The notes under the pieces were generated by a model. The model had not been told where the DNA came from and made no database searches. It was given only the letters and a program-made list of their open reading frames with translations. A stretch of 59,561 bases of DNA, from contig JAKOQC010000247.1 in NCBI GenBank assembly GCA_029778565.1, forward strand, positions 1-59,561. Direction: 5' to 3'. A program made the position numbers and the translations under genes. Of the stretch, positions 2,955-36,535 are shown in pieces (the first letter of the stretch is position 1; every line of letters begins with the position of its first letter). The DNA comes from a bacterium. GTDB taxonomy: Bacteria > Patescibacteriota > Saccharimonadia > CAILAD01 > BJGX01.

Positions 2955-3405
2955 AGAAAAAGGATTTTTTAAAGGAGCAATTGTTGGTGGATTGGTAGCT
3001 GGCACATTGGCTTTATTGTTTGCACCCAAAAGTGGTAAAGAAACACGCGAAGATCTAAAGAAACGTTGTGACGAAACTCATGCTGAGTTGCAGGCAAAAA
3101 TTAATACTGCTAAAAAAACAGGCGATAAAGTTACCAAAGAAAAGATAGAACAGGCCGAAAAACTGGCTGCCGAACTCTCGCGTAAAAGCGCCGAGCTTTC
3201 GAAGTCTTCTAAGAAGGTTGGCAAAGTTGCTGCCGAAGAAACGAAAGCACTAACTCAACGGGCTGCCGAGTTGGCTCTCGAATTGGCCGAGTCTTCTAAA
3301 AAAGTCTATGCAACCGGTAAAAAAGAAGCTGCGAGAATACAACGAGCCAAACAGCGTGCAGCTGAGAAAAGTAAACAGCCTGCAAAAAAAGCTAGCTCTA
3401 AATAA
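2947..3405 (+). CDS. YtxH domain-containing protein
   Basis: 152 aa. GFFKGAIVGGLVAGTLALLFAPKSGKETREDLKK signature followed by a Lys/Ala/Glu-rich helix. Confidence 0.75.
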   Translation: MSKEKGFFKGAIVGGLVAGTLALLFAPKSGKETREDLKKRCDETHAELQAKINTAKKTGDKVTKEKIEQAEKLAAELSRKSAELSKSSKKVGKVAAEETKALTQRAAELALELAESSKKVYATGKKEAARIQRAKQRAAEKSKQPAKKASSK

Positions 3406-32979: not shown

Positions 32980-33486
32980 TCAGTCATCTGCTTCATAATA
33001 GAAGAAGTCATTTACACCAAAGACAATATTACCATTTCTCTCGAGCAACAACAGAGTGTGCTTGATGATAAATTTGGTTGGAACCTCGATCGGAATACCT
33101 TTGCCTTCTCGTACTGCTAAAACTGCCTTGAGTAGTCTATCATCATCAGGTTGAGTTGGCATATGGCAGTTCTTTCGAACAACTCCGAGCACAGCTTCAA
33201 TAATCTCGGCATGGATGTTTTGTAGAAGGATTGCACGGACTTTTTGATAATCATTATATTCATCATTTGTAAACAGTCTCTCCCAAATTTTACGAAGTCT
33301 CACGGCCTCTACAAGGCTCAACCTTTGCACATCACAATGAGCAAAAGAGCAACTACGTGGCATTGTGCCATCAATAAGAGAAATGCCGCAAACTACATTA
33401 TCTTCTACGCTCGATTCTATACAAAGTACCGGGTGAAAATCGCAATCTTCATAGATATCTCCGGGGAGAATTCTATCGCTTGTCAT
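32980..33486 (-). CDS. hypothetical protein
   Basis: 168 aa. AAGGAAGG RBS and its own consensus promoter. No family recognised. Confidence 0.6.
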   Translation of the reverse strand: MTSDRILPGDIYEDCDFHPVLCIESSVEDNVVCGISLIDGTMPRSCSFAHCDVQRLSLVEAVRLRKIWERLFTNDEYNDYQKVRAILLQNIHAEIIEAVLGVVRKNCHMPTQPDDDRLLKAVLAVREGKGIPIEVPTKFIIKHTLLLLERNGNIVFGVNDFFYYEADD

Positions 33487-33518
33487 TGGTACACCTTCCT
33501 TGGGTGGAGGTCGGAGTT

Positions 33519-33547
33519 ATTCTACACTTTTATTCAATATTAGTCAA
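33519..33547 (-). promoter_or_regulatory. sigma70-type promoter of the 168-aa gene
   Basis: On the minus strand: TTGACT (33547-33542), N17, TAGAAT (33524-33519). Divergent from the RNA promoter. Confidence 0.6.
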
Positions 33548-33567
33548 TAATTTATTATTTTTGCCTA

Positions 33568-33596
33568 TTGACACAGTTTATTTGTTTTGCTACAAT
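33568..33596 (+). promoter_or_regulatory. consensus sigma70 promoter driving the large noncoding transcript
   Basis: TTGACA (33568-33573), exactly 17 nt, TACAAT (33591-33596). Confidence 0.7.
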
Positions 33597-34149
33597 CGTA
33601 ATCGCGTTTTTGAACCTTACATTTGCTGCCCTAGAGAAAATCTTGTGCAGCGATAACCAGTTTTTTCTAGAGTATTCACTAGCTTGAATGCACGGTTTGA
33701 TTCGCCTCATAAAGAATCTGGTTATCGCTGCAGAATGTAGCAACAGAAGTGTCACCGCAGTGTTCTGCGCCCCGCGAGTAATCGCGCCCTGCCCACAGGG
33801 GATCGGTGGAGTTGTTGTGTGCCCCAGAACCACACACTTGCAACTTTACCTTAATGGTCAGGTATGGGATAAACTACCAGGCTGCGGTGACACGCCAATC
33901 AGTGCCGGCTCGCCGAGAAGCGGGCGAGTACAGCGGATCGCCTGTAAATGGGGGTCTTCGCGAGCCGGCACGATTCTCCGCGCGCTAGCCTTGCCAGCTG
34001 AGCCATCTCCGGGTGGGGCCAATGCGAGCGGATGCGCCTGAGAGACCGAAGCTGTTCCAAAACGGCTGAGGTGCTAGAAGAGAGTGACCTACTCCAAAAC
34101 CACTCTTGCCCCGGTCTCTCGGGCGAAATCGAAACAGGCAACTGTTTCA

Positions 34150-34221
34150 GGGGACGAAGTTCTTGTGGAAGAACACCCGCCAGTTGGTGGGAGGTTGGTG
34201 GTTCGACTCCACTCGTCTCCA
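34150..34221 (+). ncRNA. tRNA-like module embedded in the large RNA (Ala/tmRNA-type acceptor, no canonical anticodon loop)
   Basis: Acceptor GGGGACG/CGTCTCC with G3-U70 and discriminator A. D arm GTTC-TTGTGGAA-GAAC. Anticodon arm CCCGC-CAGTTG-GTGGG has only a 6-nt loop, or forms a 6-bp stem with an AGTT tetraloop. 5-nt variable region. T arm GGTGG-TTCGACT-CCACT. No encoded CCA. Confidence 0.6.
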
Positions 34222-34368
34222 CTGGTAGTACAATCTCGACGGCGGGTTCTTCCTGTCACCGGCGGAAAGATTGTGCTCCATACCGGCTTCGGGTCGGGTT
34301 GCATTAAGGCGTGATGTTCGCTACTAGCGCCTTATGTGTAGCCCGGCTCGTTGCCGGACCATCTCGAG

Positions 34369-34396
34369 CCTCAATACATTCGTATTGAGGTTTTTT
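34369..34396 (+). terminator. rho-independent terminator of the large RNA
   Basis: CCTCAATAC-ATTC-GTATTGAGG followed by TTTTTT. Confidence 0.8.
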
Positions 34397-34493
34397 CTTA
34401 CCCGAAAAATGTTGAAGTCAGCGATGTATTATGATACATTTATAGGCATGAATACTGTTAAAACAGCTTGGTTTTATTTTACAAACTCTGTGT

Positions 34494-34567
34494 CTCGCCG
34501 AGGTGTTTTAAGCTAAACTCTAAATAATACGTATCAATGTAAGCCTCGGCGAAAGCCGAGGTTTTTT
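34494..34567 (+). promoter_or_regulatory. terminator/antiterminator (attenuator-like) leader upstream of the 34630 operon
   Basis: Terminator CCTCGGC-GAAA-GCCGAGG plus TTTTTT at 34544-34567. The upstream segment CTCGCCGAGG (34494-34503) can form 9 bp with the 5' arm of the terminator (34544-34552). Confidence 0.5.
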
Positions 34568-34629
34568 GTTGGTATTCATGTGGTTCTCTTGTTAAGTGAA
34601 TCACATCCGTACCTTCAAAAGGGGGAGTA

Positions 34630-34953
34630 ATGAGCATAAAAGTATCTCTGCAAGCATGCTCAAACAGGCAGGTAATGGTATTTACCACTAATGCAAGGCT
34701 AAGCAATCATGTACACACTGCGTTCTTTACAGCACACAATATTATCTACTCTCAGCGAGAGTTAAATAAGATTGGTGTTGTGGCCGAACAGGTAGTGCGC
34801 CAAGTACTTGCGTTTTACGAAATTCGCTCAGTATTTGTTAGTAGCAAGAGCATGAGTGTAGTGCTAAAAACTGGTAAGCAGTGGGAGACATTGCCCGACC
34901 AGATAGTGCGTATTATCGAAAAGGCACTCGATGAGTTTGGGATAGAGTTATGA
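34630..34953 (+). CDS. hypothetical protein with weak Nfu_N-like (NifU N-terminal scaffold) pattern
   Basis: 107 aa with a GGGGGAG RBS. The pattern ...VLAFYEIRSVFVSSKSMSVVLKTGKQWETLPDQIVRIIEKAL resembles ...GVKSVFFGxDFITVTK...W..L in Nfu_N domains. This is judged by eye only. Confidence 0.55.
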   Translation: MSIKVSLQACSNRQVMVFTTNARLSNHVHTAFFTAHNIIYSQRELNKIGVVAEQVVRQVLAFYEIRSVFVSSKSMSVVLKTGKQWETLPDQIVRIIEKALDEFGIEL

Positions 34954-35257: not shown

Positions 35258-36535
35258 ATGATAAAAGTTACTACCAAAAAAGCCCCCAGCCAAGTTACAT
35301 TAACGATTTCTGTAGATGAGCAGTTTATTGCTCCATACAAGCAAGCTGTCTTAAAACGCCTTAAGAAAGATTTAAAAGTGCCAGGTTTTCGCCCTGGTAT
35401 GGCGCCCGATAATCTTGCCGAAAAAGAATTGGGTGAAGCCAGAGTACAGGCAGATGTATTAGACGAAGTTATAATGCACGCCTATTCCCGAGCTGTACGC
35501 GACGAAAAACTCGAGACGGTAGCTAGTCCTAAAATTAGTCTCAAAAAATTTGTGCCCTATACCGATTTAGAATTTGAGGCTGAAGCACCAATAATGCCAA
35601 AAATTGCTTTTGATCTTAAGAAGCTAAAAGTAAAACCATTAGAGGCAAAGCTAGATAAAAAAGACATTGAAGAGACTTTGCAAGCTATGCAAAAACAAGC
35701 TGCCAAAAAGAGCGAAAAAAAGGGTGCTATTGCCAATGGTGACGAAGTAACCTTTGATTTTACCGGCGTGCGAGAAGGCAAGCCAGTAGAAGGAGCTGCA
35801 GCCACTAATCATGTACTGGTAATAGGGAGTAAACAATTTATTCCTGGCTTTGAAGACAACCTAATTGGTTTAAAAAAGGGTGACGACAAGAAATTTACGG
35901 TTACTTTTCCAAAAGACTACCATGCCAAAGACCTGGCTGGTAAAGACGTCGAGTTTACGGTAAAAATTCATAAGATAGAACAGATAGAATTACCAAAGCT
36001 AGACGATGCTTGGGCAAAAACTATGGGGCCGGTAAAGACTTTGGCCGAGCTAAAAAAAGATATCGAAAAAACACTGCTGAGCCAAAAGCAAGCGGAAGTT
36101 ACCAAACAGTACGAAAACCAAGTACTAGAAGCTGCAATTACCCAGGCTAAATTCGAAGCACCAGCAAGCCTAGTCGAAGAACAAGCTAATCATTTGCGAT
36201 CAGAAACAGAAGAAAACTTAAAGAATTCTGGTTTAGATTTAGACAAGTATCTCGAAATTCAAAAACGCAGCCGCGAAGACTTCGAAAAAGAACTCAAAAG
36301 CGAATCAGAAAAACGCGTTAAGCTTGGTTTGTTGCTCAGACAACTAATTGCTGATCAAAAAATTGCCGTGAGTGATGCCGAAATAGATGGTGAAATTCAA
36401 ATTATGAAAGAACAATACAGCGACCCACAAATGCTCGAACACATAGAGCATGATCATTTTCGTGAAGATGTACGAAACCATCTCTTAACTACTAAGGCTA
36501 TGAATGTTTTAGTAGAAGCAGCTGCCAAAAAGTAG
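35258..36535 (+). CDS. tig: trigger factor
   Basis: 425 aa. N-terminal ribosome-binding motif GFRPG, an FKBP-type PPIase and a C-terminal helical arm. Confidence 0.93.
   Translation: MIKVTTKKAPSQVTLTISVDEQFIAPYKQAVLKRLKKDLKVPGFRPGMAPDNLAEKELGEARVQADVLDEVIMHAYSRAVRDEKLETVASPKISLKKFVPYTDLEFEAEAPIMPKIAFDLKKLKVKPLEAKLDKKDIEETLQAMQKQAAKKSEKKGAIANGDEVTFDFTGVREGKPVEGAAATNHVLVIGSKQFIPGFEDNLIGLKKGDDKKFTVTFPKDYHAKDLAGKDVEFTVKIHKIEQIELPKLDDAWAKTMGPVKTLAELKKDIEKTLLSQKQAEVTKQYENQVLEAAITQAKFEAPASLVEEQANHLRSETEENLKNSGLDLDKYLEIQKRSREDFEKELKSESEKRVKLGLLLRQLIADQKIAVSDAEIDGEIQIMKEQYSDPQMLEHIEHDHFREDVRNHLLTTKAMNVLVEAAAKK

Follow-up and report, generated by a model that had tools for sequence, protein, structure and literature searches.

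Bacteria have very few recognised classes of structured RNA longer than 500 nt, nearly all of them without a known function, and each new one has been notable. GOLLD and ROOL are large bacterial RNAs that adjoin tRNAs, and in GOLLD the tRNA is at times embedded in the linker (PMC12286853, PMC12990946). Here we describe an RNA gene at positions 33603-34396 of a Saccharibacteria contig (JAKOQC010000247.1 of assembly GCA_029778565.1; its 59,561 nt are called the window). The original prediction, made by reading the DNA without database searches, had proposed an independent, non-coding, structured RNA of about 0.8 kb, comparable in size to GOLLD and ROOL and belonging to no known family; each part of that proposal held. 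Judging from sequence comparisons, the RNA is a new class of large structured RNA, specific to Saccharibacteria and outside Rfam 15. Within it lies a domain shaped like tRNA-Ala that has no anticodon (here also called the mimic).

All 4227 models of Rfam 15 were searched at their gathering scores, at E ≤ 10 with lax filters on positions 33450-34650, and at E ≤ 1 in seven homologous loci. Only the tRNA model reached its gathering score; the other matches, up to E = 10, were chance-level hits to small RNA and microRNA models, and the claim that no known family is represented thus stood up to cmscan. No Rfam model match was found for ROOL, OLE, raiA, HEARO/omega RNA, group I or II introns, RNase P RNA, signal recognition particle RNA or 6S RNA. 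GOLLD (RF01998) gave none in the window at its gathering score or at E ≤ 10, and none at E ≤ 1 in the seven homologous loci. The window RNA is like GOLLD and ROOL in being large (about 0.6-0.8 kb or more), ornate, and adjacent to tRNA. Like GOLLD, which sometimes carries a tRNA in its linker, it has an embedded tRNA-like domain (34150-34221), and real tRNAs accompany it in three relatives (L006, L008, L012). It differs in lying at a chromosomal housekeeping locus rather than in a phage, prophage or tRNA array, in embedding a mimic without an anticodon, and in having a number of modules that varies between close relatives. The resemblance to GOLLD and ROOL appears to be of kind only, with no membership by sequence or structure.

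Homologues were collected by a walk through relatives of the neighbouring trigger factor and by one pattern scan of metagenomes for the tRNA-like domain. The RNA gene lies between murA/tRNA-Leu(UAG) and tig-clpP-rpoB; the neighbours identified are purF, an rsmD-like gene, murA, tRNA-Leu, tig, clpP and rpoB. Two Candidatus Saccharibacteria metagenome-assembled genomes, L001 and L002, encode proteins 92% and 91% identical to the trigger factor of the window (35258-36535). Ten other Saccharibacteria contigs carry the RNA gene at the murA/tRNA-Leu - tig locus. Close homologues in the equivalent location, established by nhmmer and alignments, are those of L001, L002, L157, L192, L006 and L249; L008, L009, L010 and L012 have more distant forms. 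Homology of 33603-34396 is full-length to L001, L002, L157, L192 and L006, and the region is single-copy in the window by a repeat check. The large RNA was not seen at the locus in L007 (no nhmmer match), and the intergenic gaps there are too short for it in L011, L251 and L252. The metagenome scan returned 115 loci, mostly ordinary tRNA-Ala(UGC) genes and the 3' ends of transfer-messenger RNA (tmRNA); the true homologues of the large RNA among them were L157 and L192 only, and L142 carries a stand-alone mimic. Phage and plasmid collections yielded zero relevant blastn matches. A pattern search of viral contigs (GAGAGACC...GGTCTCTCGGGC) had one match, by eye in apparent coding sequence, where nhmmer found no RNA; another pattern (GGTGCTGCCAACACC...GCGGAC) had >120 matches of identical length, one of which, when read, was apparent coding sequence, and these were judged irrelevant. 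As far as sampled, the RNA appears restricted to Saccharibacteria with a trigger factor at least about 60% identical to that of the window.

Covariation supports the structure of the RNA. Five long helices of 15, 12, 11, 13 (one G-U) and 10 bp (one G-U) had been listed beforehand, along with GNRA hairpins at 33773-86 and 34131-48; all five are complementary and both hairpins are present. The further expectation, that the helices would covary, was borne out by at least one compensatory pair in each of the five. Over the 3' 500 nt, aligned in six sequences, 92% of cells are standard pairs, a share that falls to 39-46% once the partners are displaced (slid) by 1-3 columns. Of the 144 pairs, 25 are compensatory; shuffled alignments give 11.1 ± 2.3 (0 of 500 reach 25) and slid ones 2-10. 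Compensatory pairs also number 5 of 26 in module 1 (six sequences) and 5 of 45 in module 2. The GNRA loops keep their character as their middle bases change (GUAA/GCAA at 33778-81; GCAA/GUAA/GAAA at 34138-41). A caution applies: the covariation comes from 4-10 sequences, several of them closely related, and the shuffle controls are uncorrected for relatedness. Even with so few and related sequences, structure is the only reasonable reading in view of the slid controls and of how many independent helices there are.

Folding energies and composition were also computed. The minimum free energy (MFE) of the + strand is -362.7 kcal/mol, compared to -279.4 ± 7.1 in dinucleotide shuffles (z = -11.75), and that of the - strand is -297.9; a weaker fold on the - strand, here by 65 kcal/mol, would follow if G-U pairing contributes on the + strand. 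The RNA had been described as GC-rich relative to its flanks, and it is (54.8% G+C over 33603-34396 versus 42.2% in the rest of the window, with 200-nt windows reaching 62.5%). One predicted element did not survive: the alternative pairing of 33631-40 with 33661-70 can be drawn in the window but, in the alignment read by eye, is not conserved, and the homologues, also read by eye, have a short local hairpin there, in most cases with a loop of GNRA type. Several longer-range contacts were considered and rejected. A long-range helix that would close the RNA by pairing its 5' leader with its 3' end amounts to 2 bp in the MFE structure, none conserved. Conserved pseudoknots among the stretches left unpaired by MFE came down to a single 5-nt match (GUUUU/AAAAC), with none longer. 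A pairing of leader ACCUU with AAGGU of the tRNA-like variable loop, 5-7 bp in most homologues, was set aside because AGGU is common in tRNA variable loops. No conserved palindromic loop was seen by eye.

Several open reading frames (ORFs) of 54-117 amino acids can be drawn in the region, and genes on the same strand follow it, which would suit a protein-coding gene or a cis-regulatory leader of the downstream genes. The orthologous stretches of every ORF contain stops or differ in length by other than multiples of three, and Pfam returned zero matches for them; the original call of non-coding DNA was upheld on both counts. A strong terminator follows the RNA, the 22-amino-acid leader ORF and ORF107 beyond it have what appear by eye to be separate promoter-like boxes, conserved in homologues, and ORF107 and ORF82 are absent from those of L008-L012 that keep the RNA. 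A coding or leader role is, on this evidence, scarcely credible. The alignments show a gene that is real, conserved, non-coding and structured.

The boundaries of the gene (Table 1) are conserved too. The promoter boxes and their spacing are kept in L001, L002 and L157, and L006 has TTGACG-17-TATGAT. The terminator stem covaries in L157, L192 and L006, from CCUCAAUAC/GUAUUGAGG to CCUCAAUGC/GCAUUGAGG and CCUCAGUAC/GUACUGAGG. That the RNA has its own consensus promoter and terminator, and that homologues should exist, had both been anticipated; homologues were found, and they carry both signals. Conservation of the two signals argues for an independent gene, and transcription from one to the other is presumed.

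Table 1. Coordinates in the window of the RNA gene, its signals and its modules
Feature	Position	Strand	Basis or remark
Sigma-70-type promoter TTGACA-17-TGcTACAAT (extended -10)	33568..33596	+	11/12 positions plus TG extension
Predicted primary transcript, about 794 nt	33603..34396	+	5' end placed from -10 box; fold z = -11.75
Unpaired 5' leader motif UUUGAACCUU (family consensus UUUGNACCUU)	33609..33618	+	conserved
Module 1, three-way junction with 15-bp helix 33646-60/33718-32	33623..33743	+	MFE domain; covariation
Module 2, multi-helix domain, closing helix 33749-60/33882-93, GNRA hairpin 33773-86	33749..33893	+	MFE, covariation
Module 3, long hairpin domain, helix 33902-12/33961-71	33897..33975	+	3 compensatory pairs, 98% of cells paired
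Module 4, nested hairpin	33977..34032	+	4 compensatory pairs
Module 5, branched hairpin, closing helix 34036-48/34112-24	34035..34125	+	covariation alignment, helices 6-9
Module 6, GNRA-capped hairpin, one base upstream of tRNA-like domain	34131..34148	+	covarying stem
tRNA-like cloverleaf, alanine type	34150..34221	+	ARAGORN, Rfam tRNA model, MFE
Module 7, hairpin 34227-36/34268-77, conserved loop UUCCUGUCAC	34223..34280	+	2 compensatory pairs
Module 8, 3' branched hairpin	34283..34357	+	5 compensatory pairs
Intrinsic terminator	34366..34396	+	stem 34366-34393, then T run

By MFE and alignment, the RNA is built as a chain of mostly self-contained domains, several of them capped by GNRA loops; this modular build, and the tRNA-like domain embedded in it, had escaped the original prediction. 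The near-universal parts are the leader, module 1, module 5, the hairpin just before the tRNA-like domain, the domain itself and the hairpin after it. The leader motif opens the RNA in L001, L002, L157, L006, L249, L008, L009, L010 and L012. A hairpin with a closing sequence similar to that of module 5, CC.(G/A)A(G/A)AG ... CU(C/U)U(C/U)GGG, stands upstream of the tRNA-like domain in L008, L009 and L010, and a hairpin directly after the domain was found in every homologue. In module 6 the loop varies among GCAA, GUAA and GAAA, and an A-U pair of the stem becomes G-C in L192. The closing helix of module 2 changes from G-C to A-U in L157 and L192, with its loop going from GUAA to GCAA; the whole module is replaced by a different sequence in L002, and related extra modules are present in L001, L157 and L192. 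Some extra modules are similar in size to module 2 and contain an AGAAG-YNGGGAG-like stretch (alignment read by eye), from which we infer that they are its paralogues. In L006, a real tRNA-Lys occupies the place corresponding to module 8. Homologue lengths range from 630 to 1381 nt, and even genomes whose trigger factors are 91-92% identical differ by whole modules (70-170 nt) inserted or replaced between short linkers. These alignments show an RNA that is modular, its multi-helix modules gained and lost between close relatives, which suggests semi-autonomous binding or scaffold units.

One further hairpin was observed among the homologues. GGUG-CUGCCAA-CACC (L006, about 3212-3226) is identical over its 15 nt in four lineages (L006, L008, L009, L010), covaries in L249, and sits 45-66 nt upstream of the tRNA mimic; in the clade of the window, a GNRA hairpin replaces it. 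In L010 the hairpin that follows the mimic has a loop, UUGGCA, complementary to that of GGUG-CUGCCAA-CACC.

By analogy with GOLLD and ROOL, the RNA could be a self-assembling homo-oligomer in which the tRNA-like domain (or, in relatives, real tRNAs) would be tethered or stored cargo, normally uncleaved. Its size of 0.8-1.4 kb and its many GNRA loops, which remain GNRA despite sequence change, would fit such a particle, as would the tRNAs embedded in or adjoining the RNA, in the manner of GOLLD (PMC12286853, PMC12990946), and the hairpin that abuts the 5' end of the tRNA-like domain. The lack of a GOLLD or ROOL model match even at E ≤ 10 speaks against it, as does the housekeeping locus, with no prophage there and no phage or plasmid homologue. 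The unpaired stretches offer only the one 5-nt conserved complementary pair, and no conserved palindromic loop by eye; a variable module count, moreover, is hard to square with a fixed symmetric cage. We regard self-assembly as distinctly improbable.

The tRNA-like domain has an acceptor stem of GGGGACG/CGUCUCC with G3:U70 and A73, a D arm, and a T arm (GGUUCGACUCC). Searched alone, the region scores 38.5 bits against the Rfam tRNA model (RF00005; gathering score 29), and the L006 and L010 counterparts score 43-44 bits; MFE alone gives a cloverleaf in all homologues. The domain passes the gathering score and lacks the 7-nt anticodon loop with a usable anticodon that a tRNA would have. The corresponding arm in the window is a 6-bp stem with a 4-nt loop and no anticodon, which ARAGORN reported as tRNA-??? 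with a 2-base 'anticodon'. Homologues have a loop of 3-6 nt in that position or an extended arm (L249, L250), and the stem is perfect with a new sequence in each lineage (CCCGCC/GGUGGG, CCUGCC/GGCAGG, UUUCGC/GCGGAA, CUUCACCC/GGGUGAAG and CCCCGAC/GUUGGGG). A domain so built is predicted to be one that cannot decode. At the acceptor end, pair 3:70 is G-U in ten of ten sequences and the discriminator is A73 in nine of ten, while both members of pairs 2:71, 4:69, 5:68 and 7:66 vary. The combination of G3:U70 and A73 is well established as the identity set of alanyl-tRNA synthetase and is common to tmRNA. The acceptor stem of the mimic, GGGGACG/CGUCUCC-A, occurs unchanged in genuine tRNA-Ala(UGC) genes from the metagenome scan.

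The D arm of the window drew separate attention. Three features of window 34150-34225 recur in L166 (10288-10364), L188 and L236: the D stem, which is unusual in having 6 bp (GUUCUU/AAGAAC), the acceptor stem and the trailer CUGG. The matching elements are tRNA-Ala(UGC) genes from tRNA arrays with a G+C content of about 70%; the other members of the RNA family have an ordinary D arm. The likeness could be due to horizontal exchange or to convergence.

Several described RNAs invite comparison with the tRNA-like domain. The Staphylococcus cell-wall tRNA-Gly and tRNA-Other of Bacillus cereus are tRNA-shaped RNAs retained for non-decoding roles, and the mimic may be likened to them; they differ in keeping a 7-nt anticodon loop and in being ordinary stand-alone genes. 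YrlA RNAs, like the window RNA, are bacterial non-coding RNAs with a tRNA-like module; they are about 100 nt long and pair with Rsr/Ro60. The YrlA model (RF02553) scored 17.9 bits (gathering score 69), and no Ro60-like (Rsr) gene is among the genes identified within about 5 kb of the RNA, the wider window not having been scanned for one. With tmRNA, the domain has in common an alanine-type acceptor with G3:U70 and A73, a T arm and the lack of an anticodon. It differs in that what lies between its acceptor strands is a regular 71-nt cloverleaf, complete with D and anticodon-type stems and with no mRNA-like domain, and in that it sits inside a far larger RNA. A tmRNA was considered and rejected: ARAGORN finds none in the window or the scanned Saccharibacteria loci, the acceptor strands are contiguous, and there is no tag frame. 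The tmRNA model applied to the tRNA-like domain alone gave sub-threshold scores of 29.5 bits in L002 and 21.9 bits in L250 (gathering score 47).

Standard tmRNA is present in 5252 of 6765 Patescibacteria genomes (PMC11915505 supplement), and forms of about 65 nt without a coding sequence (CDS) occur in jakobid mitochondria, some plastids and phage DS6A, with one phage form acting as an inhibitor of host tmRNA (PMC11915505). The metagenome loci L167/L214, L199 and L207 hold genes some 80 nt long whose two ends are of tmRNA type and which have no mRNA-like domain; some have tRNA genes as neighbours. Their closest likeness to described RNAs is with the CDS-less tmRNA reported for phage DS6A and some organelles. 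L142 (1380-1447, - strand) is a stand-alone gene resembling an anticodon-less tRNA-Ala, with an encoded CCA and a 5-bp arm with a 3-nt loop. It lies on an unrelated metagenome contig of 46% G+C and is similar to the mimic of L006 (nhmmer E = 1e-5). The existence of this copy suggests that the small RNA may have a role of its own.

The mimic might then be the main product, with its flanks serving as precursor or scaffold: a dedicated non-decoding alanyl carrier (for example a donor in tRNA-dependent aminoacylation of cell wall or lipid), or a ribosome-rescue factor or inhibitor resembling a CDS-less tmRNA. The invariant G3:U70, the A73 in nine of ten sequences and the covariation of the rest of the acceptor stem all favour this, as do the retention of the anticodon arm merely as a stem, the L142 homologue with its CCA, the sub-threshold tmRNA scores and the precedent of the phage inhibitor. 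It agrees with much of what is described here but would leave 550-1100 nt of covarying upstream structure unexplained. The D stem of the domain is also regular, and its anticodon-type stem stands where SmpB would sit; in structures of tmRNA with SmpB, the protein takes the place of the anticodon-type stem. Finally, no Fem/MurM-type or MprF-type gene turned up nearby, no search having been aimed at them. We consider it unlikely that the mimic is the main product.

Real tRNAs are associated with the RNA in several relatives. In L006, L008 and L012, a tRNA (Lys-CUU, Phe-GAA and His-GUG, respectively) follows the mimic ahead of the terminator; L010 and L012 have a second, terminal tRNA-like domain with an 8-nt loop. 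A different arrangement was observed in L250 (2469-2925; trigger factor 57% identical), where four tandem tRNA-like units, three of them aberrant, occupy the locus: one with a 57-nt insert in the anticodon region, one with an Ala-type acceptor and T arm and a 77-nt arm (the unit that scores 21.9 bits with the tmRNA model), a tRNA-Lys(CUU), and one in which a 9-bp stem with GUAA stands in place of the anticodon arm. The array may show the origin of the large RNA from a tRNA operon. Taken further, the tRNA-like domains could be pseudogenes of a decaying tRNA operon and the remainder a structured spacer without function. The real tRNAs in the unit of relatives, the aberrant units of L250 and the missing RNA at the locus in L007, L011, L251 and L252 are in keeping with decay. 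Pseudogenes, however, would not keep perfect compensated stems, an invariant G3:U70, and a consensus promoter and terminator, and the window RNA is conserved end to end yet includes no real tRNA at all. Decay without function is a very improbable account.

The reading that we favour, though with an even chance of its being wrong, is that of a stable multi-domain non-coding RNA that is cut at its tRNA mimic. Transcription would run from the strong sigma-70 promoter of the gene to its own terminator, and the transcript would fold into a chain of self-contained multi-helix modules, one of them tRNA-shaped, without an anticodon loop and either derived from or mimicking tRNA-Ala. RNase P would cleave at 34149/34150, and RNase Z or an equivalent after A34221. 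The mimic, about 72 nt long, would thereby be separated from a structured RNA of about 550 nt on its 5' side and from one of about 170 nt on its 3' side. Because the real tRNAs of L006, L008 and L012 are co-transcribed with the RNA, both enzymes must act on those transcripts and would be expected to recognise the mimic too. Because the alanine identity set is kept, the mimic would probably be CCA-tailed and charged by alanyl-tRNA synthetase, and would not decode. Both the cleavage and the charging we infer from the sequences of the family. The arrangement is similar to that of MALAT1-mascRNA and MEN-beta, in which a large structured RNA is followed by a tRNA-like domain as a would-be processing site, released as a small RNA. 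Those RNAs are eukaryotic long non-coding RNAs, mascRNA is not aminoacylated, and their 3' end arises from an RNase P cut that is only supposed to occur here; the window RNA also continues with further structured RNA 3' of its tRNA-like domain.

Four observations weigh against cleavage and charging. The GNRA hairpin at 34131-48 ends one base before the acceptor stem and might impede RNase P. The window does not encode CCA (the sequence is ACUGG), and charging would therefore need 3' trimming and CCA addition. L010 has C73, and the first tRNA-like domain of L012 has C3:G70. Lastly, G3:U70 could be kept for a structural reason unrelated to alanyl-tRNA synthetase. A bolder form of the cleavage model is rather doubtful, namely that an alanine-charged mimic is cut from the giant RNA for a non-decoding role (as an alanine donor, or as a ribosome rescue factor or inhibitor), that the 5' RNA forms a separate functional particle, and that the whole is a tRNA-punctuated operon of non-coding RNA.

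The DNA on either side of the RNA gene also has features of its own. Downstream, at 34412-34570, promoter-like boxes (seen by eye and not listed by the promoter scan) are followed by a 22-amino-acid ORF at 34448-34516 (+; MNTVKTAWFYFTNSVSRRGVLS) and then by a terminator at 34541-34564; the 3' end of the ORF (CTCGCCGAGG) can pair with the 5' arm of that terminator. The segment looks like a ribosome-mediated attenuator that would sense aromatic aminoacyl-tRNAs upstream of ORF107 and ORF82, and its DNA is conserved in L001, L002, L006, L157, L192 and L249. Upstream, a divergent promoter-like site at 33519-33547 (-; TTGACT-17-TAGAAT) stands back-to-back with the RNA promoter, ahead of a 168-amino-acid ORF (32980-33486, -) that has no family match and is present only in the close relatives L001, L002 and L157. 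ORF168, ORF107 and ORF82 had no informative match in Pfam, NCBIfam or PADLOC. The leader motif was considered as a genome-wide signal and found unconvincing on its counts in the window (TTTGNACCTT, 2 versus 1.0 expected; GTACCTT, 15 versus 7.3). One GTACCTT copy, conserved in homologues, precedes the Shine-Dalgarno sequence of ORF107 by about 10 nt; the related UUUGNACCUU opens the large RNA.

The RNA belongs to the core genome of Saccharibacteria, within the Candidate Phyla Radiation (CPR/Patescibacteria). In genomes as tiny as theirs, it is unlikely that a non-coding stretch of 0.8-1.4 kb with a consensus promoter lies idle. The RNA is unusual in its folded modules, which come and go between close relatives, and in its tRNA-Ala mimic, which keeps the identity pair for alanyl-tRNA synthetase and lacks an anticodon. 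Should the mimic be charged, it would be a rare dedicated aminoacyl carrier that does not decode, and it could bear on the origin of tmRNA-like molecules from tRNA-Ala. A tRNA-punctuated operon of non-coding RNA in the core genome of an ultra-small epibiont would, if true, be a new class.

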